IMG/VR virus record: IMGVR_UViG_2579778634_000021
Direction: 5' to 3' (one strand)
From: a virus
Lineage: Duplodnaviria; Heunggongvirae; Uroviricota; Caudoviricetes
Length of the DNA stretch: 51,177 bases
How positions within the stretch are numbered: position 1 is the first letter of the stretch; the number at the start of each line of letters is the position of its first letter. The position numbers and the translations under genes were made by a program. Under the pieces are notes generated by a model. It ran no database searches and was not told the origin of the DNA. It saw only the letters and a list, made by a program, of their open reading frames with translations. Shown one piece after another: positions 612 through 43,066 of this stretch.

Positions 612-1280
612 ATGGTGAAATCAATGAAAAAAAACACAGATGATGGGGCTAAAATTTACACACCACTTACCCTAAAGCTTTATGACTGGTGGGTTTTGGG
701 AGTATCAAATCGGCTTGCATGGGGATGTCCTACAAAGGAACACCTTCTTCCACACTTTCTGGAACATGTAGGTAACAACCATCTGGATATTGGTGTTGGA
801 ACTGGGTTTTACCTTACTCACGTACCTGAGAGTAGTCTGATATCTTTAATGGATTTGAACGAAGCTAGCCTGAACGCGGCATCTACAAGGGCTGGGGAAT
901 CAAAAATTAAACATAAAATTAGCCATGATGTTTTTGAACCTTATCCCGCGGCGTTACATGGTCAATTTGATTCCATTTCCATGTTTTACCTTCTTCACTG
1001 CCTGCCTGGAAATATATCTACAAAAAGCTGTGTAATACGCAATGCGGCGCAGGCCTTAACTGACGATGGAACTCTATACGGAGCCACAATTCTTGGCGAT
1101 GGAGTTGTGCACAATAGCTTCGGTCAAAAACTGATGCGCATTTACAATCAGAAAGGCATCTTTTCAAACACAAAAGATTCCGAAGAAGGCTTAACACATA
1201 TACTCTCAGAGCATTTCGAGAATGTTAAAACCAAGGTTCAAGGTACTGTAGTAATGTTTTCCGCTTCAGGGAAAAAATAG
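612..1280 (+). CDS. class I SAM-dependent methyltransferase (cargo gene)
   Basis: 222-aa ORF with the Rossmann motif I DIGVGTGFY and an acidic post-I motif LMDLNE. AT-rich compared with its flanks and the only plus-strand gene in a minus-strand tail operon. Confidence 0.65.
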   Translation: MVKSMKKNTDDGAKIYTPLTLKLYDWWVLGVSNRLAWGCPTKEHLLPHFLEHVGNNHLDIGVGTGFYLTHVPESSLISLMDLNEASLNAASTRAGESKIKHKISHDVFEPYPAALHGQFDSISMFYLLHCLPGNISTKSCVIRNAAQALTDDGTLYGATILGDGVVHNSFGQKLMRIYNQKGIFSNTKDSEEGLTHILSEHFENVKTKVQGTVVMFSASGKK

Positions 1281-1285
1281 CATCC

Positions 1286-1495
1286 AACCGCAGCACGTTC
1301 TTGCTTAAGACGTGCTGCGGCATAATCCCAATGATTACTCCCTGACAGGGTTCGTAGGCCACTCAATATCAGGTGCAGTTGATGTATCAACACGGTTCAG
1401 CAACACCCGATACTTTTTCCAGGCTTCCAGCAACGAGATTTCTTCCTCTGTTGCAATTTCCAGATCTGCAGCATCCTGAAGCGGCGCAATATGCT
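1286..1495. repeat. direct repeat copy B (tfa 3' end plus terminator hairpin)
   Basis: Partner of 235..450. Contains the 11-bp-stem hairpin ccgcagcacgt/acgtgctgcgg immediately after the tfa stop. Confidence 0.7.
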
Positions 1496-1919
1496 CGCTG
1501 GCTACCTGCATCAGGCTGTTTTTTGTTTCTTCCGCCTCCCGGATCCGGAACAGTTTTTCTGCTTCCGTATCCTTCACCCAGGCTGTGCCGTTCCACTTCT
1601 GAAACTCCCCTTCCGGCGATAACCAGGTAACATTTTCCGGTAACGGACCGAGTTCAGAAATAAATAACTCGTCCCCTGACGCTACGTCATAAACCGTTTT
1701 ACCCCGATGGTCTTCAACGAGATGCCACGATGCCTCATCACTGTTGAAAACAGCCACAAAGCCAGCAGGAATATCTGGTGGTGCAATATCGGTACTGTTT
1801 GCTGGCAGACCTGTATGAGGCGGAATATATGCGTCACCTTCACCAATAAATTCATTAGTTCCGGCCAGCAGATTATAAATTTTTATGGTCCGTGCTTGTT
1901 CACTCATTCTGAATGCCAT
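1335..1919 (-). CDS. tfa: tail fibre assembly protein Tfa
   Basis: 194-aa ORF directly downstream of the side tail fibre gene, with the start overlapping the stf stop. Conserved Tfa C-terminal domain. Confidence 0.85.
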
Positions 1920-31760: not shown

Positions 31761-32387
31761 TCATCTAGCAATCACTAGAAGTTCTTTCTCCAATTCTCGC
31801 TTCATTGCATAAAACATTTCTGAATCAAGGACCCTCTCGCACCACACGACCCGCCTCCGGCAATACTGAATATCAACTCCTGTTATCTGAGAAATCATCC
31901 TGGCGATATCTTGCGTGCTGTCGCGATTGCAATATCGCCTAATAGCTACATCACGGACAGGGCTTTCACGATGAAAGGTCTCAACCATCACACGTTCAAC
32001 GAAAGCAGCATCATCGGATTCTTTGGCGAGAGCAATGATATTACCTGCCGATGACTGAGGGATGACCAGTTCTCGGGCTTTCTGATGGAGTTCATCTCCA
32101 CGTAGTCCGTCTTCTTCATACAGACGCATGACAACAGACTCAATCTGCTTAGCTTTGTCATCGCTCCACTGACTGCGAATCATCAGTCGCCCAATAACGT
32201 TAATTGCACCACAAGGAGAATCATCACCAGCGTTAACATTTCCCCATACCTGTAGCATGTAGTGAACCCATGCTTTCTGACGAGAGTTAATGATTTTCTT
32301 CGGATGCCTCCATATGCGGCGGAAATGAGCATCATTAATAAAGTTAACCATGCCGAATACTGGGGTTAGCCGCATCACAGCCCCCAT
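31761..32387 (-). CDS. putative late-gene regulator in the Q position (Q-like by position only)
   Basis: 208-aa ORF immediately upstream of the terminator-rich region and the late genes. I could not match it to lambda Q. Confidence 0.4.
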   Translation of the reverse strand: MGAVMRLTPVFGMVNFINDAHFRRIWRHPKKIINSRQKAWVHYMLQVWGNVNAGDDSPCGAINVIGRLMIRSQWSDDKAKQIESVVMRLYEEDGLRGDELHQKARELVIPQSSAGNIIALAKESDDAAFVERVMVETFHRESPVRDVAIRRYCNRDSTQDIARMISQITGVDIQYCRRRVVWCERVLDSEMFYAMKRELEKELLVIAR

Positions 32388-32518: not shown

Positions 32519-32609
32519 ATACTCTTCGCCATGAACTCCGCTATTACGCTGCTCATGCGCTTTTCCAGACGACCTGAATAAAGCCATGCGTTCAGGCACC
32601 TGCTGAATA

Positions 32610-32810
32610 TCACGCATCAGTAGCTTTCCCCTTATCCCATCCACGATGAACCATAAGGACACCGTTGACGACGGCGTGCCGTTTGCCTTCTTTATCACCG
32701 ACATATTTTCTGACCGTAGCACGATTACAGTTCAGTTTTCGTGAAACTTCAGTCATATTGCCTCGTGCCTGGATAAGCAATTCCGGTATTGTTTGAATTG
32801 TGGCGTTCAT
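32610..32810 (-). CDS. ninH: NinH
   Basis: 66 aa, close to lambda NinH (TIPELLIQARGNMTEVSRKLNCNRATVRKYV). Confidence 0.85.
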   Translation of the reverse strand: MNATIQTIPELLIQARGNMTEVSRKLNCNRATVRKYVGDKEGKRHAVVNGVLMVHRGWDKGKATDA

Positions 32811-33169
32811 ATGTTCTCCAGTTCGGTGATTTTTATCCCCACTCTACCGCCAGGCACTTTCACGCCGCGAATTACGCGAATGTCATCGAATTGCTCGTCG
32901 TCTTCCGCAAATCCGGCGTGGATAAGAGAGTCGAGTAAACCTTTCAGGATGTTATCGAGGTCGCGACGGCGGGAATCTGGTGGTTCAGCAATAATTGTGA
33001 TGCGAAGTCGTGATTTAGTGAAAATGTCTAATCTGAGTTGCCGGATGATTTGCTGTACGTCTTTTCGGTATTTCTGGCCTTTATCGCTGATGTAGTACTG
33101 GCTTCCCCGTCTTCGCCAGTAGGTATTCACCGTCGGCGGCCAGGGAAGCACAAACTCATATTCATTCAT
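32807..33169 (-). CDS. rusA: Holliday junction resolvase RusA
   Basis: 120 aa with the RusA signature LPWPP...DxDN. Confidence 0.9.
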   Translation of the reverse strand: MNEYEFVLPWPPTVNTYWRRRGSQYYISDKGQKYRKDVQQIIRQLRLDIFTKSRLRITIIAEPPDSRRRDLDNILKGLLDSLIHAGFAEDDEQFDDIRVIRGVKVPGGRVGIKITELENI

Positions 33170-33459
33170 GACTTAATCTTCCCCTCCTTCAGCAATATCG
33201 CCAGCGTCCTGATCACGCCTTCCAGGTGGTAAAGTCTGGCGTCGTTGTTGTCGAGAATGCGAGTACGGCGATCGATTTCATTATGGCAGTCACTACAGGC
33301 CCATGCAGCCAACAGATCATCTGGCTTTGTTCCCGTTCCGCAAATTCCAGCCATTCGGTAATGCGCCAGAACTGTAGTTTCAGGGTTGCCATTGCATACG
33401 CCATAAATCCGTACCTGGCATTCTCTGCCGCGCGCTTCTTTGCGTAGGTTTGTCATCAT
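33166..33459 (-). CDS. YbcO-like phage protein (putative zinc-binding nuclease family)
   Basis: Matches my recollection of DLP12 YbcO (RKEARGRECQVRIYGVCNGNPETTVLAHYR...CSDCHNEIDRR). Start chosen at the internal Met. Confidence 0.7.
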   Translation of the reverse strand: MMTNLRKEARGRECQVRIYGVCNGNPETTVLAHYRMAGICGTGTKPDDLLAAWACSDCHNEIDRRTRILDNNDARLYHLEGVIRTLAILLKEGKIKS

Positions 33460-33479
33460 CTTATTCCTCATGCAGTAGG

Positions 33480-33671
33480 CTATCCGGAGTGACAATTAAA
33501 TCTTGCTCGACGCCTTAGCCACCGGATATCCCACAGGTGAGCCGTATAGTTGAAGGTTTTAACATCAGATTCTTTGGGGACTGGCCTGGGTTTATTTCGG
33601 GAGCGTTTGGTTGGAAGGTAATTGCAGTTTTCACAGACGATATCGGTGATGCTTCGTCGCTGTCGTCTCAT
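33480..33671 (-). CDS. ninE: NinE (copy 1)
   Basis: 63 aa, [30 protein letters not shown]..., near-identical to lambda NinE. Confidence 0.85.
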
Positions 33672-34078
33672 TCGTACCTCCTGTCGGTAAATCTGACACC
33701 CTGATCCACGGCCCAGGATGTTGTGTACTCAATCAGGCTTGCCATACGCTTCACGCTCATTTGCGCACTGCTTTCGCGGATATTGACGTATTCACCTTCA
33801 AGACCTGGCAAAACATCAGCTTCCTGTTTTGTCGCCACGGCATGACCGCTGATTAACAAAACTTTCCACTGTTCTGGTTTTAGCCACCTGCCGCACCACT
33901 TAACCTGGCGGGATATATCAGCGACCATCGCGTGAAATTTTGCATTTTGAGCGAGATTACGCTTGTAATCGGTGATACGGATCGTAACGGGTTTGTCTTT
34001 ATCGAGAGTTGTTGCAAGGATGGCGTTAATGGCGAATTGTTGCTGCTGCTTACTTCGGAGGAAGATAGTCTGGTTCAT
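33668..34078 (-). CDS. ninB: NinB recombination protein (copy 1)
   Basis: 136 aa, NinB/Orf family. Confidence 0.8.
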
Positions 34079-34132
34079 TATTCCCTCTCACTGGATTTTC
34101 CCAACAAAAAAGGAGCCGAAGCTCCTTTAGTT

Positions 34133-34834
34133 TCAGAATTCAAATTGTCTTGCCCGCAGGCTTTTCAGCATTGGCATGGCCCACTGGATAACGGAACTTG
34201 ACATGTCGAGACGTGTTACCTCCCTTAGTAGCGCGTCTCTGTTCTTCGTCACCATGTAGATAGTCTCAAACGCAATGTCATACAGCTTGTTCGTGTATGA
34301 GGAGTTCAGCTCTTTCATTATGGGGTACAGCTGCTTGCTAAGGTCCTGGGCTTTTTCCATCCAGAGTTGCATGTAGCAAAGGAGGATGATTTCCTCGGCT
34401 GTGAATTGTGGCTGAATCTGCGGCTGCTGTTCGGTTGGTGCTGTTTTTCCCTGGCTGAAATAGCAGTCTTCCAGTTTTTCGAACACTTCCCACGCCTGAT
34501 CGGTTTCGAGCATTTTTGCGTGACGGGCTGCGCCGCGTTCTGTCCAGAGGATGAGGGAGCGAACATTGCGGGCGATTTTCACAGAGTAACTTTCTGTTAC
34601 CTCGCGGCTAACAGACTCGCTTAAAGATAGTCTGTGCTTGAACTCACGTAGTTCATTCCCTTCCAACTTAAAGAAATGTTTTCCCTGTACAAATCGCGCA
34701 GAGTTACGGGAAAAATTCATTTTTATATTGACTGTTTCAGTGCCATACAATTGCGCCAATAATTCTGTAGTAATTACGGGGATCTGGTTGTAGGCAATTG
34801 GGGAAAGAGTTTCAACGGAAATTTGAGTCGCCAT
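34133..34834 (-). CDS. ORF6N-domain protein (antirepressor-like, putative DNA-binding)
   Basis: 233 aa. The N-terminal block VITTELLAQLYGTETVNIKMNFSRNSARFVQGKHFFKLEG fits the ORF6N pattern. Inserted between the two ninB-ninE copies. Confidence 0.6.
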   Translation of the reverse strand: MATQISVETLSPIAYNQIPVITTELLAQLYGTETVNIKMNFSRNSARFVQGKHFFKLEGNELREFKHRLSLSESVSREVTESYSVKIARNVRSLILWTERGAARHAKMLETDQAWEVFEKLEDCYFSQGKTAPTEQQPQIQPQFTAEEIILLCYMQLWMEKAQDLSKQLYPIMKELNSSYTNKLYDIAFETIYMVTKNRDALLREVTRLDMSSSVIQWAMPMLKSLRARQFEF

Positions 34835-35112
34835 GACAACGCCCTCTGGTTGATGAATTTAACTATCACCACCGTCAGGTGCAAATCTTTGGGTGGTGAG
34901 ACGTACAGGGTTTGCACTACCGGATCAACCAACCGGCGAGCCTTTCGGCTCCCCCATACGCCCCACCATAATTCAGATGTGCGTGTGCTTACGACAACAA
35001 AAAACACGCTCGCGGCGTGTGTCTGTCGCGGTTGAATATCCGGGGTGCAAATCCCGACGCCAGATTTTGCTGGCGCGTGAGGAATATAGCCCCGAATAAA
35101 TCATCACGTCAA

Positions 35113-35295
35113 TCACCTTGTTTTCCTCGCACGATGTCTTAGCCACCGGATATCCCACAGGTGAGCCGTGTAATTGAAGGTTTTAACGTCAGATTCTTTT
35201 GGGATTGGCCTGGGTTTATTTCTGGAGCGTTTCGTTGGAAGGTATTTGCAGTTTTCGCAGATGATGTCGGTGATACTTCGTCGCTGTCGCCTCAT
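35113..35295 (-). CDS. ninE: NinE (copy 2)
   Basis: 60 aa, [64 protein letters not shown] overlap with the upstream methylase stop. Confidence 0.85.
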
Positions 35296-35819
35296 GCCGC
35301 CCTCCTGACGCCCTGCCCGATCGCCATCAATGCCGCTTTGGATACGGTAGTAAACATCCGTCGAGGACTGATGAACGGTCGCCAAATCAGCAGCATGGAA
35401 CCTTTGCTGTTTCCCTTCTTCTCCAGCCCTGTCGATGGTTCGATAAAATTAATCCGTCCATCAGTGATGATGCGAACTTCGTCAACACTCTCCAGAGCCT
35501 TACTGAACCATCCGACAGACATATCCTCTGGCACAAGCATCACTACCGTCTGTCGTTGTTGTATGCACTGCTCAGCGGCTTTTTCCACCCACGGCCTGAT
35601 ATTGCTGTACGGTGGGTTATTCCAGATTGCACCGTGGCTTACCCACTCAGAATTGAGCGCGTCGTCGGCCTCAGTTAGCCAGTGAGCACACAGAGCATTT
35701 TTGTCGCTCGCTGCCGAATCCAGCCAGAATCCAAACTCAATATCCAGTGCATCAAAAAGCCAAAGCGGCGTTTGCCAGCAGTCCTTGTCGTGTGCTGGCG
35801 TATTTGATTTGATAGTCAT
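35292..35819 (-). CDS. phage DNA N6-adenine methyltransferase (Dam type)
   Basis: 175 aa with the NPPY catalytic motif (IWNNPPYSN) and an N-terminal CWQTP motif. ATGA-coupled to ninB copy 2. Confidence 0.8.
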
Positions 35820-36262
35820 GCAGCCTTCCCTTTTCGTTGTGACCATTCATACTCTCGCCAGGAGTCATCACTCCACCGCACGTTGCGCTCTGAGCCGAAC
35901 CAGAACATGATTTCGATAAGCTCAGTCATGTTGGCCTTTCGCATTTTGCTGGTACGCACACCAAGCATGACAACGCCACCGTCGATACCAGGCACACTTC
36001 GTTGCTCCAGTTTTTTGGTCTTAAGCCACAGGGCAGTGAACAGGTCTTTCCAGTCTTCCGGCGCCAGCCGTTGACCATGCCATAGCACCTGACGCGAAAC
36101 ATCGTTCAGCATCGGCCACATACGGTCATTCTGCGCTTTGCTGCGCTTGGGTTCTTTAACGTGGACTTCGTGGGGTGACTTGTCGTCGATGGGTAGTGAG
36201 AGAATGGCGTCTATGGCGTTATTTCTGATTGCTTCGTTGCGAAGCAGAAAGGTTTGCTTCAT
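35816..36262 (-). CDS. ninB: NinB recombination protein (copy 2)
   Basis: Start taken at MKQTFLLRNEAIRNNAIDAIL. Paralog of 33668..34078. Confidence 0.8.
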   Translation of the reverse strand: MKQTFLLRNEAIRNNAIDAILSLPIDDKSPHEVHVKEPKRSKAQNDRMWPMLNDVSRQVLWHGQRLAPEDWKDLFTALWLKTKKLEQRSVPGIDGGVVMLGVRTSKMRKANMTELIEIMFWFGSERNVRWSDDSWREYEWSQRKGKAA

Positions 36263-36461
36263 CTCCTGCTCTCCGGTTCCATTTTTCAGCCGCCGCAGCA
36301 ACTGATGGTGCCCATGCCCCCCTGGCTTCACAGAGGTCACATTCTGCATAGCCCCACACATCAATATTTATTCCGGCCTCAACCCACAGACGAGCATTAC
36401 CGCCGCAAAACGGACATTCTTTTAGCTTTGGCTGGGTTAATGATAGGTCGCTCATGCTCAC
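36219..36461 (-). CDS. Lar-family restriction alleviation protein (zinc ribbon)
   Basis: 80 aa with CPFCGG ... CDLC ... WNRRA, the pattern of the Lar family. Its 3' end overlaps the ninB copy 2 start. Confidence 0.55.
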   Translation of the reverse strand: MSMSDLSLTQPKLKECPFCGGNARLWVEAGINIDVWGYAECDLCEARGAWAPSVAAAAEKWNRRAGDEANLSASQRSNQK

Positions 36462-36465
36462 TCCT

Positions 36466-36681
36466 TCACTTTAAATCCAGACTCCGGATAATTCTGTTGC
36501 GCTGAAACTCATTGTTGAGTTTGAACAACCGTCGAAGAACACGGTCACGCGGATAGCGTCGTGCGGCAGGTGAATGCTCATACAACTCATCAAGCGGCAA
36601 ACTGGACGATGAACGATACCGATACCAACGCACCAACTCTTCACGAAAATTAGCCCTGACAAGCTCAGCTATCGTACTCAT
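36466..36681 (-). CDS. hypothetical protein
   Basis: 71-aa basic ORF between ren and the Lar-like gene. Confidence 0.4.
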   Translation of the reverse strand: MSTIAELVRANFREELVRWYRYRSSSSLPLDELYEHSPAARRYPRDRVLRRLFKLNNEFQRNRIIRSLDLK

Positions 36682-36766
36682 TTCTTAAAGCCTCCAATTA
36701 CTCTTCCCCAAATAAAAAGGCCTGCGATTACCAGCAGGCCTGTTACAAGCTCAGTGATGTAGATGG

Positions 36767-37057
36767 TCATCTTTTAACTCCATATACCGCCAATACCCGT
36801 TTCATCACTGCACTCTGGCGACACTCCTTAAAAATCAGGTTCGTGCTCACCTTTCCTTCCCGTTCTTCCCTGGTAGCAAACCGGTAATACACCGTTCGCC
36901 AGACCTTACCATCAATGACAAGGATTCCTGCCCGCGCCATTTTAGCCGCAGCCTGATTTATACTGGTTACGGTTGCGCCTGTTACCGCGGAAACGTCCTG
37001 TGCACAGAAGTTCTTATGCGCCCCGAGGTAATGAATAATTGCCTCTTTGCCCGTCAT
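36767..37057 (-). CDS. ren: Ren (Rex-exclusion escape protein)
   Basis: 96 aa, near-identical to lambda Ren (MTGKEAIIHYLG...VLAVYGVKR). Confidence 0.9.
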   Translation of the reverse strand: MTGKEAIIHYLGAHKNFCAQDVSAVTGATVTSINQAAAKMARAGILVIDGKVWRTVYYRFATREEREGKVSTNLIFKECRQSAVMKRVLAVYGVKR

Positions 37058-37755
37058 ATACTTGCTCCTTTCAGTCCGAACTTAGCTTTAATTTCTGCGA
37101 TCTTCGCCAGAGCCTGTGCTCGATTTAGAGGTCTGCCGCCCATGACAGGAAGTTGTTTTACTGGTTCAGGTATCGTCTCACCACGGTTAATTCTCGCAGT
37201 CATATGGACAAGCTCATCTGCGGCCTTACGGCGTAATTCCGCATCAGTAAGCGCATTGGCCCGCATGTTCTGATACAGGTTGGTAACCAGCCAGTAGTGC
37301 GCGTTTGATTTCCACGGATAAGACTCTGCATCCGGATACAGGCCTCGCTTCCGGCAATACTCGTAAACCATATCAACCAGCTCGCTGACGTTTGGCAGTC
37401 CGGCGATAACGGATGCTTCTTCCCGGCACCATGCAACAAACTGCCCGGGTGATGGAAGAAATGGTCGATTCTGCCGACGGGCTACGCGCATTCCTGCGTT
37501 AACCTGTTCCATCGAGGTGATCCCGTTTTCCCGGAAAGCCAGAACCCACTGGCGGCGGATTTCATTCAGTTCGTTCTGGTCCCGGTTAGCCAGACTCGCC
37601 GGGAAAGTTGCCAGTAACTGGCTGAACACACCGTTGATGATCTGCGCTACCTGTTGTACCTGCGGCTTTTCGTCGTACTGTTCCGGCATGTTGTTGGCGA
37701 TCCGACGCATCTGCTCACGGTCAAAGTTAACCATCTGTGCGGCGATGTTTTTCAT
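37054..37755 (-). CDS. P: replication protein P (DnaB helicase loader)
   Basis: 233 aa, near-identical to lambda P. Confidence 0.95.
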   Translation of the reverse strand: MKNIAAQMVNFDREQMRRIANNMPEQYDEKPQVQQVAQIINGVFSQLLATFPASLANRDQNELNEIRRQWVLAFRENGITSMEQVNAGMRVARRQNRPFLPSPGQFVAWCREEASVIAGLPNVSELVDMVYEYCRKRGLYPDAESYPWKSNAHYWLVTNLYQNMRANALTDAELRRKAADELVHMTARINRGETIPEPVKQLPVMGGRPLNRAQALAKIAEIKAKFGLKGASI

Positions 37756-38690
37756 AAATCCACCCCGTAAATCCAGTCAGTGTTTGTCAGGTCGAGTTTT
37801 GGTTTGCTGGCTGTCACGCCTGCCTGTTGCTTGTTACGGTTGATTTCGAGCTGGGTCCACTTGTCGCGGAGTTTGGCCGGACTTAGCACGTTACCGGACC
37901 AGAAGTTGTCCTGGCATGCCCAGCGGAACAGCACGCACATGTCGCGGTGGTTACGTCCGTCACGTTCACGCATCAGGCGGATATCGTTAGCCCACCCTGC
38001 AAAATTCGGTTTTCTGGCTGATGGTGCGATGGTCTTCACCATGTCAAACATCCACTCTGCGGCGGTCAGGTCTTCTGCTGTTCCCCACTTGCTGCCGCTC
38101 TGAATTGCAGCATCCGGTTTAACCACAGAAAGATCGTTTTCTGGCTGGTCAGAGGATTCGCCAGAATTCTCGGACGAATAATCTTTTCTTTTTTCTTTTG
38201 TAATAGTGTCTTTTGTGTCCCCCTGTTTTGAGGGATAGCAATCCCCTAATTTGAGGGATGTTTTATCCCTCGTTTTAGGGGGGGTTCCCTCGTTTTGAGG
38301 GATGTCCCTCATTTTAGGGGAACCTCCCTCGTTTTGAGGGATGCACCATTCTGAGATGTTTTTATTTGGTCCAAACATGCCGCCTTGCTGCTTGATAATA
38401 TTCATTCTGACGAGTTCTAACTTGGCTTCATTGCACCGTTTGACAGGTAACTTTGTAATCTCGCTAAGTTGAGAATCGGTGATTCTGTCCATTGGTTTAT
38501 TCCACCCATAGGTTTTACGCAGAATGGCAAGCAGCACTTTAAACTGTCGCTTGGTCAGATCTGCGCCTGAATAAGCCTCAATCAGCATATTTGATAGTCT
38601 GGCGTAACCATCATCGAGATCTGCCACATTACGCTCCTGTCCGGCAAAGTTACTTCTGCCGAAGTTGAGTATTTTTGCTGTATTTGTCAT
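37752..38690 (-). CDS. O: replication initiator O
   Basis: 312 aa with a lambda O-like N-terminus. The origin iterons lie inside the gene. Confidence 0.9.
   Translation of the reverse strand: MTNTAKILNFGRSNFAGQERNVADLDDGYARLSNMLIEAYSGADLTKRQFKVLLAILRKTYGWNKPMDRITDSQLSEITKLPVKRCNEAKLELVRMNIIKQQGGMFGPNKNISEWCIPQNEGGSPKMRDIPQNEGTPPKTRDKTSLKLGDCYPSKQGDTKDTITKEKRKDYSSENSGESSDQPENDLSVVKPDAAIQSGSKWGTAEDLTAAEWMFDMVKTIAPSARKPNFAGWANDIRLMRERDGRNHRDMCVLFRWACQDNFWSGNVLSPAKLRDKWTQLEINRNKQQAGVTASKPKLDLTNTDWIYGVDL
38160..38345. repeat. replication origin: five to six iterons (ccctcgttttgagggat-like) plus an adjacent AT-rich region
   Basis: Iterons at 38218..38340, followed by the AT-rich run ttttcttttttcttttgtaatag. 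Confidence 0.85.
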
Positions 38691-39488: not shown

Positions 39489-40136
39489 ATGAAAACGATG
39501 CATGAAATTATCGGGGAAAGGATCAAGTCCCTTAGAGAAGCTAAAGGACTTAGCCAGGCTCAATTGGCCAAGCTTTGCGGCTGGGCTGCGCCTTCACGCC
39601 TGGGGAACTACGAGTTAGGAACAAGAAAGGTTAGCGCGGATGACGCGCTGGTTCTTGGGGCGGCACTCGGCGTATCTCCGGCAAAAATAATGTTTGGCGA
39701 GGATTCAGACGCTGTATTTCGCCAATATGAGTACCCGTTATTTTCTTCAGTGCAGGCCGGGCCGTTTTCGGAGGTTGGAAGCTACACAGCAAGCGATGCA
39801 AAGGCATGGGTCCCAACGACCACAAAAGCCAGCGAAAAAGCTTTCTGGCTTGAGGTGAAAGGCCATTCTATGACTGCGCCACAGGGCGTAAGGCCGAGTT
39901 TTCCTGAGGGTATGCTGATACTCGTTGATCCGGCCGAGCCGGTAGAGTCTGGGGATTTCTGCGTGGCTTCTGCAAATGGTGATTCAGAGGCAACGTTCAA
40001 GAAGTATGAGAAGGATGCAGGGGTTAGTTACTTGGTTCCATTGAATCCGGCATACAGAACCCTGGACTGCGATCACACATGCCGCATCATAGGCAAGGTA
40101 GTTAAGGCTCAGTGGCCTGAAGAGACGTTTGGATGA
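39489..40136 (+). CDS. cI: CI repressor (helix-turn-helix plus S24 LexA-like autopeptidase domain)
   Basis: 215 aa. N-terminal helix-turn-helix and a C-terminal S24 region (GHSM ... K). Confidence 0.9.
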
Positions 40137-40186
40137 TGGATGGTCGCAGAGATGCTCGTAGAGCATACAGCGATGCAGGAGAATTT

Positions 40187-40621
40187 ATGGCACTTAATTT
40201 AGAAAGAATATCTTTTATAACCCCATTTGATAGCAGCGAAGAACCCAACCAACCGACGCTTAATTTTACATGCAATGAATTTCCTGCGCGGCTATCGATT
40301 GATTTCAGGGTTGGTATGATCGGGTTGAAACCAAATTCAAGATATAATTTGGGTATTATGGTAATCCCCGCGCACCTAATTATAAAAAAAGGTGAGGAAA
40401 TTCAATTCCCTGACGGCTCTTCGGAATCAGTTTCACTTTTCATCGATACGAAAGATAGCCATTTTGAAACAGGGGTTGGCGGACAGGTAATAGTAACATT
40501 GAAAGAAATTAGGGTCCCAGCTAAAGGGCTGTATAGTGTTATAGGGATATTGCAAGATAATGAAGACCCTAAAAATGAACTTCATAAAAATGAATCATTT
40601 TTCACCGTAGAGCTATTATGA
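40187..40621 (+). CDS. hypothetical protein A of the cI-linked cassette (rexA position)
   Basis: 144 aa from MALNLERISF, after an AGGAG ribosome-binding site. A frame-compatible ATGA start at 40133 is also possible. AT-rich; no recognisable domain. Confidence 0.5.
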   Translation: MALNLERISFITPFDSSEEPNQPTLNFTCNEFPARLSIDFRVGMIGLKPNSRYNLGIMVIPAHLIIKKGEEIQFPDGSSESVSLFIDTKDSHFETGVGGQVIVTLKEIRVPAKGLYSVIGILQDNEDPKNELHKNESFFTVELL

Positions 40622-41238
40622 GTGACGACAGTAATTTAAATAATCATGGAAAGCAAGACACCAACATATCTGAAAGCCGGAGGTTGAAGGTTGTTGGCGG
40701 TTCCGATTTTGAGGCTGAATTTGATAATTCTCCCACCAAGGTGCAAAATAATTACATAAAACCGCCACAAACGGAGGAAGAAGTGGGAACGATCAGCAGA
40801 GAGGAACTTGATGCTCGCTTAGCTGCTAATAAAGCAGAGATGGAGTCTATTGCTTCTTCCATTAGGACTGACATGGCTCTATCTCGTGAAAGCGTTAATG
40901 TCCAATTTGCATCACTTAATGCAGCCATAAGCTCTCTATCGTCCAAGATCGATGGAAAGATGGATAGCGCTGCTGGCGATATAAAAGCAATTAATGGGAG
41001 ATTCGAAGGAATTCAAGGACAAATAACAGGGGTTAATACCGCAATTAGTGGTGTTCAGTCGGGTATTTCTATACGATTAGCCATTTTTAGTGTCATTATC
41101 GCTGTAATAGTTGCGATTCCCGGGCTGGTATCAGCTTTAAAGTCAGACCACGCACCTTTGCAACAGCCTTCCACTTTGCAAGCGCCGCCACAAAATACCC
41201 AGCCAACAGACAACAAAAAAATCACTCCCCAGCATTAA
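40618..41238 (+). CDS. hypothetical coiled-coil membrane protein B of the cI-linked cassette (rexB position)
   Basis: 206 aa. ATGA-coupled to protein A. Ser/Ala-rich coiled-coil-like middle, one C-terminal transmembrane helix (LAIFSVIIAVIVAIPGLVSAL), and a Pro/Gln-rich tail. Confidence 0.5.
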   Translation: MSDDSNLNNHGKQDTNISESRRLKVVGGSDFEAEFDNSPTKVQNNYIKPPQTEEEVGTISREELDARLAANKAEMESIASSIRTDMALSRESVNVQFASLNAAISSLSSKIDGKMDSAAGDIKAINGRFEGIQGQITGVNTAISGVQSGISIRLAIFSVIIAVIVAIPGLVSALKSDHAPLQQPSTLQAPPQNTQPTDNKKITPQH

Positions 41239-42861: not shown

Positions 42862-42925
42862 ATGCATACCAATAACGCTTCACTAGAGGCGTTTTCGTTA
42901 TGTGTAAATAAATAAGGAGCACACC

Positions 42926-43066
42926 ATGCAATATGCCATTGCAGGGTGGCCTGTTGCTGGCTGCCCTTCCGAATCTTTACTTGAACGAATCACCCGTAAA
43001 TTACGTGACGGATGGAAACGCCTTATCGACATACTTAATCAGCCAGGAGTTCCCAAAAATGGATAA
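42926..43066 (+). CDS. cIII: cIII (FtsH inhibitor)
   Basis: 46-aa [49 protein letters not shown], which matches lambda cIII. Not in the supplied ORF track because it is under 60 aa. Confidence 0.85.
   Translation: MQYAIAGWPVAGCPSESLLERITRKLRDGWKRLIDILNQPGVPKNG

Follow-up and report, generated by a model that had tools for sequence, protein, structure and literature searches.

The stretch of DNA described here (IMG/VR record IMGVR_UViG_2579778634_000021, a virus of the Caudoviricetes; 51,177 nucleotides (nt), referred to throughout as the window) contains the nin region of a lambdoid Escherichia coli prophage that carries two ninB-ninE gene pairs. All genes of this region lie on the minus strand and, read along that strand, are arranged in the order Lar-like, ninB (copy 2), dam, ninE (copy 2), a 278-nt spacer, a gene with ORF6N and P22AR_C domains (ant), ninB (copy 1) and ninE (copy 1), within an overall layout that is that of a lambdoid early-right operon (Table 1). 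One edge of the window falls inside an integrase gene and the other beyond the tail-fibre and cargo genes, and the sequence is 100% identical to National Center for Biotechnology Information (NCBI) draft contig JJLL01000134.1 (assembly GCA_000627235.1) across the 9.2 kb compared. An initial annotation, made from the sequence without database searches, had listed these same genes, each of which was recovered on the minus strand at the positions it gave or a few bases away, and its family calls (Lar, Dam, ORF6N, NinB and NinE) all exceed curated profile thresholds. As set out below, the region is probably a mosaic of two known nin modules that recombined at an IsrK/C4/ant cassette and that carries an RNA-controlled antirepressor.

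Both NinB proteins cover the whole of the PF05772 profile (positions 1-131 of 131; cutoff 23.8 bits), copy 2 with an E value of 7e-49 (165.4 bits) and copy 1 with 8e-53 (178.1 bits), and both match phrog_72, while the two NinE proteins score 146.1 and 138.6 bits against a PF05322 cutoff of 25. The initial annotation had described the pairs as paralogous copies and proposed an alignment to find the limits of the duplication. Both pairs are indeed present, but they are not duplicates of one another: the NinB copies share 35% amino-acid identity, and neither a repeat search nor pairwise alignment detected DNA similarity between the two ninB genes. The sole DNA repeat of the region is 185 nt of ninE (33502-33686 and 35126-35310) at 88% identity, with a longest identical run of ~32 nt, the two NinE proteins being 93% identical. 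A tandem duplication would be recognized by DNA likeness over the whole ninB-ninE unit, and the copies lack it. Copy 2 of ninB is 98-99% identical in nucleotide sequence to the ninB of Stx phages. At 35% identity, the two NinB proteins are heterologous alleles and not the products of duplication, and the further suggestion that the pairs derive from the nin modules of two phage lineages, joined by recombination, gains support.

The first of these lineages, here called A-type (VT2-Sakai/Stx1/PhiR12 type), supplies the left-hand block. Of 5426 complete E. coli genomes, 624 carry the unit Lar-ninB-dam-ninE (35100-36470) as one contiguous stretch, as do 119 phage records, counted at a query coverage of at least 80%. 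The unit is 98.7% identical in nucleotide sequence to VT2-Sakai over that interval and is canonical for VT2-Sakai/933W/Stx1-type phages. In the annotated loci of Stx1 phage AU5Stx1, of E. coli HCP4S3_I4 and of VT2-Sakai, the series runs from ren and DUF7301 through Lar, ninB, dam and ninE to a spacer of ~270 nt and ant, with one ninB-ninE pair each, and the DUF7301 gene holds the equivalent position in related loci L001-L003, L007 and L012. VT2-Sakai, like 933W and AU5Stx1, thus shares with the window the series from DUF7301 through the cassette to ant (in VT2-Sakai orf30, Lar-like; orf31, ninB; orf32, dam; orf33, ninE; orf34; and ant), but it has its own ant allele, whose product is 48% identical to the ORF6N protein of the window, followed by roi, ninG and Q, and a single ninB-ninE pair. 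Lar and Dam, which had been read as cargo inserted between duplicated modules, are both resident in this contiguous block, and the Lar-like gene lies upstream of both ninB-ninE pairs rather than between them.

The Lar-like protein is 100% identical to VT2-Sakai orf30 and, as the profile searches proposed in the initial annotation confirm, belongs to a known family, with matches to PF14354 (E 1.9e-10; 41.2 bits, cutoff 28.6), TIGR03655 (62.3 bits, cutoff 39.6) and phrog_599. In these two former models and in its four-cysteine zinc ribbon (CPFC and CDLC, of the form CxxC...CxxC) it resembles Rac Lar/RalR, from which it differs in falling short of the RalR equivalog model NF007260 (27.6 bits, cutoff 113), so that equivalence to the Rac protein is not reached. 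Because this model failed, restriction alleviation can be proposed only by analogy with a distant relative; to our knowledge, restriction alleviation and DNase toxin activity are known solely for the Rac protein. PADLOC returned no match for the Lar-like protein. The ATG at 36455 (78 amino acids), which has an AAGGAG Shine-Dalgarno sequence 7 nt upstream, is preferred as its start to the previously chosen GTG at 36461, which would give 80 amino acids. The 3' end of the gene overlaps ninB copy 2 by 44 nt, as is standard in annotated RefSeq and phage records, and the open reading frame (ORF) is 100% conserved at the nucleotide level in five loci in which the neighbouring genes differ by 1-5%. 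With this conservation and a strong Shine-Dalgarno sequence, the concern that the overlap might leave the Lar-like gene untranslated finds no support.

The prediction of a Dam-type methylase with an NPPY motif, ATGA-coupled on both sides, was borne out. The protein matches PF05869 (E 8e-65, 218 bits) and the equivalog TIGR01712 (265.9 bits against 97.05), has NNPPYS at residues 67-72, and its gene is ATGA-coupled at its start to ninB copy 2 and at its end to ninE copy 2. It is 100% identical to VT2-Sakai orf32 (M.EcoVT2Dam), and through this identity its specificity would be GATC, the target reported for that enzyme in a passage of PMC6602927 citing Radlinska and Bujnicki 2001. Compared with four homologues, dam shows 8-12 synonymous and 0-1 non-synonymous codon differences, and the low non-synonymous count indicates purifying selection. 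The gene is absent from PhiR12_1 (L007), where ninB is followed directly by ninE with the junction CAGGGAGGGCGGCATGA, a clean indel with matching junction motifs. In the window, near-repeats of the coupling junction (…GGAGGGCGGCATGA) border the gene on both sides, at 35292-35310 and 35816-35835, the ninB copy 2 3' end reading AAGGGAAGGCTGCATGA and the dam 3' end CAGGAGGGCGGCATGA. This pattern suggests that the dam cassette may be gained or lost via recombination at the short junction motif. Hence, of the gene set originally described as inserted, dam alone behaves as an indel relative to PhiR12_1, whereas Lar and the ORF6N gene are resident in their blocks.

The second lineage, B-type (O104:H4-Stx2a/ED1a/PhiR5_2 type), accounts for the right-hand block. 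Cassette, ORF6N, ninB, ninE, ybcO, rusA and ninH constitute the usual distal nin block of this lineage, whose members include the O104:H4 Stx2a prophage, prophages of E. coli ED1a and G1/2, Shigella phages POCJ13 and 75/02 Stx, and PhiR5_2; a literature search on the PhiR5/PhiR12 phages returned nothing relevant. The O104:H4 Stx2a, ED1a, POCJ13, 75/02 Stx and PhiR5_2 phages match the window from the cassette through ninH in the same order at 92-99% identity. They differ from it upstream, where the block follows DnaC/DUF1627/DUF977 replication genes and toxin-antitoxin genes and where O-P-ren, Lar, ninB copy 2, dam and ninE copy 2 are lacking. The exact NinB copy 1 protein is present in O104:H4/ED1a-type phages and was found in 2936 blocks of the assembly collection, with a B-type setting in all ten of the contexts shown, and the identical 233-amino-acid ORF6N/Ant protein is encoded in a pure B-type prophage (L010). 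Past ninE copy 1, the window (ybcO, rusA, ninH and the Q-like gene) runs on as contiguous B-type sequence with 96-99% identity to L004, L008 and L010, and gene calls give the same continuation in L009.

The protein encoded between the spacer and ninB copy 1 has an ORF6N domain (PF10543, E 1.8e-20, 73.4 bits) and a P22_AR_C domain (PF10548, E 1.7e-7, 31.7 bits) and matches phrog_377, 'anti-repressor Ant', over its full length (E 4e-82). The initial annotation had counted it among an anti-restriction set, but it is a member of the Ant family encoded behind an IsrK/C4 cassette. A defence or anti-restriction role for the protein was rejected, PADLOC giving only weak PDC-S05 matches to the ORF6N domain. 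Within ant, a 111-nt segment (34451-34561) coding for RSLILWTERGAARHAKMLETDQAWEVFEKLEDCYFSQ, where the ORF6N domain gives way to the P22AR_C domain, is 94-98% identical between otherwise diverged ant alleles (L001, L003) and looks like a possible intragenic mosaic joint. The hairpin in the gap between ant and ninB copy 1 is a putative terminator.

The noncoding spacer of ~270 bp noted before the ORF6N gene is real, at 278 nt, but it is not empty, as it contains matches to the Rfam families isrK and C4. A promoter-like site lies at its upstream end, the -35 element abutting the ninE copy 2 stop codon, and both hexamers are kept in six of six cassette alleles with differing flanks; it may drive the IsrK/C4/ant transcript. 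The IsrK-like RNA, predicted to be the equivalent of the a1/b1 decoy sites of the C4 system, carries b1 and a1 and ends in an intrinsic terminator-like hairpin (35004-35020) with a U run, conserved in the six alleles. The C4 segment folds into the family structure (minimum free energy -44.6 kcal/mol, z -4.9), in which the loop a' (UUGGUUGAU) and the stretch b' (GUGCAAA) are predicted to be unpaired, and seven of the 27 base pairs of its stems show compensatory changes among seven alleles. The leader of ant carries b2 (UUUGCAC, 34879-34885) and a2 (AUCAACCA, 34847-34854), the latter directly 5' of the GAGGG Shine-Dalgarno sequence (34842-34846), and both are perfectly complementary to a' and b' of the cassette's own C4 RNA.

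These sites vary together between alleles. Across six alleles a1/a'/a2 and b1/b'/b2 co-vary three ways, with perfect matches of 6-9 nt (a) and 7-8 nt (b) within an allele and of 0-5 nt between alleles with different sites, and a2 ends 7-16 nt before the ATG in all six. Sites were matched with a loop-restricted complementarity matrix, since RNAduplex applied to whole RNAs unfolds the C4 stem. Both isrK and C4 score above their gathering thresholds before ant in nine of nine related loci scanned, and DNA similar to the cassette region is present in 764 of the 5426 complete E. coli genomes. Gene calls for both the source assembly and PhiR12_1 include, as a hypothetical protein, a 47-codon ORF that overlaps the promoter and IsrK (34973-35116, minus strand) and that is probably spurious, the RNA there being non-coding. 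For annotation, this implies that the spacer before nin-region antirepressor genes should be read as an IsrK/C4 switch, often entered as a 47-amino-acid hypothetical protein; this reinterpretation, together with the three-way covariation that supports its mechanism, is the most useful by-product of the analysis.

Two characterized systems provide a model for how such a cassette could work. In P1, the c4 RNA represses Ant synthesis (PMC8546580), and in the isrK-orf45-anrP locus of Gifsy-1, IsrK acts in trans to activate translation of an antirepressor-like protein (PMC4825925, Hershko-Shalev et al. 2016). The cassette resembles immI of P1/P7 (c4, icd, ant) in having a C4-family RNA (RF01695) upstream of an antirepressor gene, accessible a' and b' sequences complementary to sites by a downstream ribosome-binding site, a1 and b1 upstream, and allele specificity. 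It differs in the lack of an icd-like coupling gene, in targets that abut the Shine-Dalgarno sequence of ant itself, in an Ant of ORF6N/P22AR_C type, and in its location in the nin region of a lambdoid prophage. With Gifsy-1 it shares an RF01394 IsrK with a putative promoter of its own and a putative leaky terminator, a conserved segment of ~130 nt, an antirepressor-like gene, and IsrK sequences complementary to the downstream segment. By analogy, the promoter abutting the ninE copy 2 stop would start a transcript with IsrK, comprising the b1 and a1 decoys and its own terminator, and read-through would yield a C4-type antisense RNA and then ant. The a' and b' sequences of C4 would pair with a2 and b2 beside the Shine-Dalgarno sequence and block translation of Ant, as in P1 immI, and IsrK would titrate C4 or remodel the leader, thereby switching Ant on, as for Gifsy-1 IsrK-AnrP. 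Ant would then inactivate a prophage repressor.

The cassette is also where the two lineages meet. Mismatch maps place the proposed crossover within 540 nt (34536-35075) over which the window is identical both to PhiR12_1, an A-type phage without dam, and to the B-type locus L010. PhiR12_1 is 99.2% identical to the window over 34451-35305 and 97.8% over 35816-38230, with mismatches at 34487, 34508 and 34535 and the next only at 35122; L010 is 99.3% identical over 32588-35098, without a difference from 33762 to 35075; mismatches follow at 35076-35095, and beyond 35098 there is no longer any homology. Within the shared block fall isrK, C4 and the opening 100 codons of ant, and the joint is in the cassette and the 5' part of ant, not in ninE. 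Under the proposed scheme, parent A would have had lambda-type O-P-ren, DUF7301, Lar, ninB, dam, ninE, cassette and ant, and parent B DnaC-type replication genes, HigBA, cassette, ant (ORF6N), ninB, ninE, ybcO, rusA, ninH and Q. The antirepressor cassette (promoter, IsrK, C4 RNA and 5' half of ant) would thus be common to both, with ninB-ninE on opposite sides of it, and one homologous crossover inside the shared 540 nt would join A-left to B-right. A single crossover is sufficient because the window equals both parents across the interval, and two heterologous ninB and two ninE genes result because lineage A has its pair upstream of the shared block and lineage B downstream. The second ninB-ninE pair is accordingly a by-product of mosaic exchange, and the whole a rare combination of known parts. 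An A-type parent with dam and the same cassette allele exists (L026), and A-type and B-type prophages occur together in single closed or near-closed genomes (SCU-104, GCA_054792675.1).

A number of points weigh against a mosaic with an RNA-controlled antirepressor. The exact arrangement was found nowhere else in the 5426 complete E. coli genomes and 50,697 phage records searched, and the A-left/B-right linkage, as read from the sequence, depends on a draft assembly, the join being located within a 684-kb contig of GCA_000627235.1. In a sister draft, GCA_000627155.1, the junction is not bridged, and contigs end inside the shared 540 nt. With respect to RNA control, the c4-a1b1 model RF03163 scores 45.8 bits at 35037-35089, just under its gathering threshold of 46.7. 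The frame equivalent to orf45, which opens at paired AUGs, stops after 14 codons without overlapping the ant start, whose context (GUCAUGG) provides no AUGA overlap. The operation of the switch in this phage would follow from its sequence and from known homologues, and the ORF6N protein is most likely an antirepressor of the P1 immI/Gifsy-1 IsrK type (Ant/AnrP-like) by family membership alone. The Gifsy-1 mechanism in unchanged form was rejected because this orf45 frame is truncated; unlike in Gifsy-1, it also lacks ATGA coupling to ant. Another difference from that phage is that no Rfam match to isrJ was found after ant, where the hairpin at 34109-34128 sits at the Gifsy-1 isrJ position. No icd-like coupled ORF was found upstream of ant either, there being no gene between C4 and ant and a leader of 54 nt. 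Because there is no icd-like gene and the orf45 frame is uncoupled, C4 most likely exerts control by directly masking the ribosome-binding site of ant.

The pattern in the sister assembly suggests that its strain has two copies of the shared block, with four different flanks in all, and the join could reflect a real hybrid, an inversion involving two resident prophages, or a false join made in assembly. The last of these accounts, in which an assembler joined A-type and B-type prophages through the shared 540 nt and no single phage has two pairs, is unlikely, but it has definite evidence in its favour. The sister A-side contig (306 kb) ends at ~34574, 39 nt short of the A-type divergence point, and the B-side contig (5.1 kb) at 35001, 75 nt short of the B-type divergence point, as expected for a two-copy repeat with four different flanks; moreover, both prophage types do occur together in single genomes, and no closed genome has the exact arrangement. 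Nevertheless, the join lies within a 684-kb contig, and assemblers usually break rather than mis-join at unresolved repeats; the same contig is recorded for two samples; and the sister pattern fits equally well a real hybrid with a second prophage, or a real inversion between prophages. In addition, hybrids with dam-ninE, cassette, ORF6N, ninB and ninE do occur naturally, as is proved by two closed genomes, OkiPb01678 and OkiPb01712.

These two genomes come nearest to the exact arrangement (86% query cover, 94% identity), and no other complete genome combines Lar, ninB, dam, ninE, cassette, ORF6N, ninB and ninE in a single prophage. They represent an independent double-ninB hybrid that differs downstream, where ninE copy 1 is followed by a second cassette with other a/b sites, a P22AR-type ant, a KilAC gene and then DUF1364, so that the right joint falls at ninE. 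This joint, in which OkiPb01678 passes from cassette-ORF6N-ninB1-ninE1 to a second cassette and an A-type ant, bears on a different history, namely that a B-type segment entered an A-type phage via the ninE repeat or short junctions and was later rearranged; ninE is the only DNA repeat inside the region. For the window such a two-step origin is quite improbable, as everything downstream of ninE copy 1 is contiguous B-type, a joint at ninE is unnecessary, and a single crossover in the 540-nt block suffices. The model of the initial annotation, a tandem ninB-ninE duplication with later insertion of an anti-restriction set (Lar, Dam and ORF6N), can draw on the presence of ninB and ninE twice each, all in one orientation, inside 2.8 kb, on the similarity of the ninE copies and on the insert-like behaviour of dam in a close relative, but it is hardly credible given NinB copies without DNA similarity, pairs that each lie in the canonical, widespread block of phages carrying one pair, a Lar gene upstream of both, and an ORF6N gene that is the right-block antirepressor under RNA control.

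The preferred reading, recombination of two nin modules at the cassette, describes textbook lambdoid modular exchange between genes already sequenced in VT2-Sakai and O104:H4-type prophages. A joining of phage arms at the cassette bears on the reassortment of immunity/replication arms with late-gene arms in Stx-type phages, and is also relevant to what might set the specificity of antirepressor cross-talk among co-resident prophages. It is tentatively proposed that in lambdoid/Stx prophages the IsrK-C4-ant cassette has a dual role, as a portable homology 'linker' and as an RNA-coded specificity lock. As a linker, it could be where phages exchange early (immunity/replication) and late (Q/lysis/virion) arms, inversion between co-resident prophages being one of the routes; as a lock, its a/b site alleles could determine which co-resident prophages are under common antirepressor control. 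A-type phages, B-type phages and the window hybrid have one allele in common (a = AUCAACCA, b = UUUGCAC), and the C4 and IsrK RNAs of one such prophage would therefore cross-regulate Ant of another. The two IsrK/C4/ant cassettes of OkiPb01678 (L001; 2760-2958 and 4371-4572) have different sites (a = GUACGGA, b = UUAGCAC and a = GAAACC, b = UUGGCGU) and, on this basis, would be two orthogonal antirepressor locks in one phage. The arrangement also raises the question of the selective value, if any, of two NinB/Orf mediators that are 35% identical.

Table 1. Features of the nin region and its surroundings in the window, listed along the minus strand (nt positions of the window)
Feature	Position	Strand	Basis or remark
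cI	39489-40136	+	
cro, cII	between cI and O		
O	37752-38690	-	
P	37054-37755	-	
ren	36767-37057	-	
ninA-like ORF	36678-36770	-	30 codons
DUF7301 gene	36466-36681	-	PF23975, E 3.8e-26; first gene of A-type (VT2-Sakai/PhiR12-like) nin block
Lar-family zinc-ribbon gene	36219-36455	-	PF14354
ninB copy 2	35816-36262	-	PF05772; Orf-family recombination mediator, A-type allele
dam	35292-35819	-	PF05869; N6-adenine methyltransferase
ninE copy 2	35113-35295	-	PF05322, E 2.7e-43
Spacer	34835-35112		278 nt
Promoter-like site	35083-35112	-	TTGACG, 18 nt, TATATT; 10/12 consensus match
isrK	34999-35076	-	RF01394, 76.3 bits (gathering 50)
C4 antisense RNA	34889-34973	-	RF01695, 74.4 bits (gathering 45)
ant leader with C4 target sites	34835-34888	-	complementarity to C4 a'/b'
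Proposed crossover interval	34536-35075		540 nt identical to PhiR12_1 (A) and L010 (B); mismatch maps
ant	34133-34834	-	PF10543, PF10548; ORF6N + P22_AR_C
Terminator-like hairpin, ant/ninB copy 1 gap	34109-34128	-	8-bp stem, UUCG loop, T run; fold z -4.0
ninB copy 1	33668-34078	-	PF05772; B-type allele
ninE copy 1	33480-33671	-	PF05322, E 6e-41
ybcO/DUF1364 nuclease gene	33166-33456	-	PF07102
rusA	32807-33169	-	
ninH	32610-32810	-	
Q-like gene	31761-32387	-	phrog_753

Several further features were observed elsewhere in the window. Within the ninA-like ORF, where lambda has tR2, there is a strong terminator-like hairpin (36718-36741, minus strand; z -4.3), and the lambda cIII thermoregulator element (RF01804, 88.5 bits; 42913-42971, plus strand) is consistent with a lambda-like early-left operon. 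Directly 3' of cI, at the position of lambda rexAB, are two overlapping genes (40133-40621 and 40618-41238, plus strand) with no Pfam or PADLOC match, matching only phrog_5893 and phrog_5820, to which no function is assigned there; they could be an exclusion pair expressed in the lysogen. Between the Q-like gene and a SASA-esterase gene is a tandem of the STnc100 small RNA family (RF02076; 30542-31220, minus strand) consisting of two full copies and one weak copy (138.7, 129.9 and 30 bits), which is likewise placed in L004, L005, L007 and L008. Towards the other end of the window, a strong match to Rfam IS009 (223 bits; 1378-1576, minus strand) falls within the tail-fibre-assembly gene (1335-1919), and past the tail-fibre genes, on the opposite strand, is a cargo gene for a SAM-dependent methyltransferase-like protein (612-1280, plus strand; Methyltransf_12/23/25, phrog_2132).

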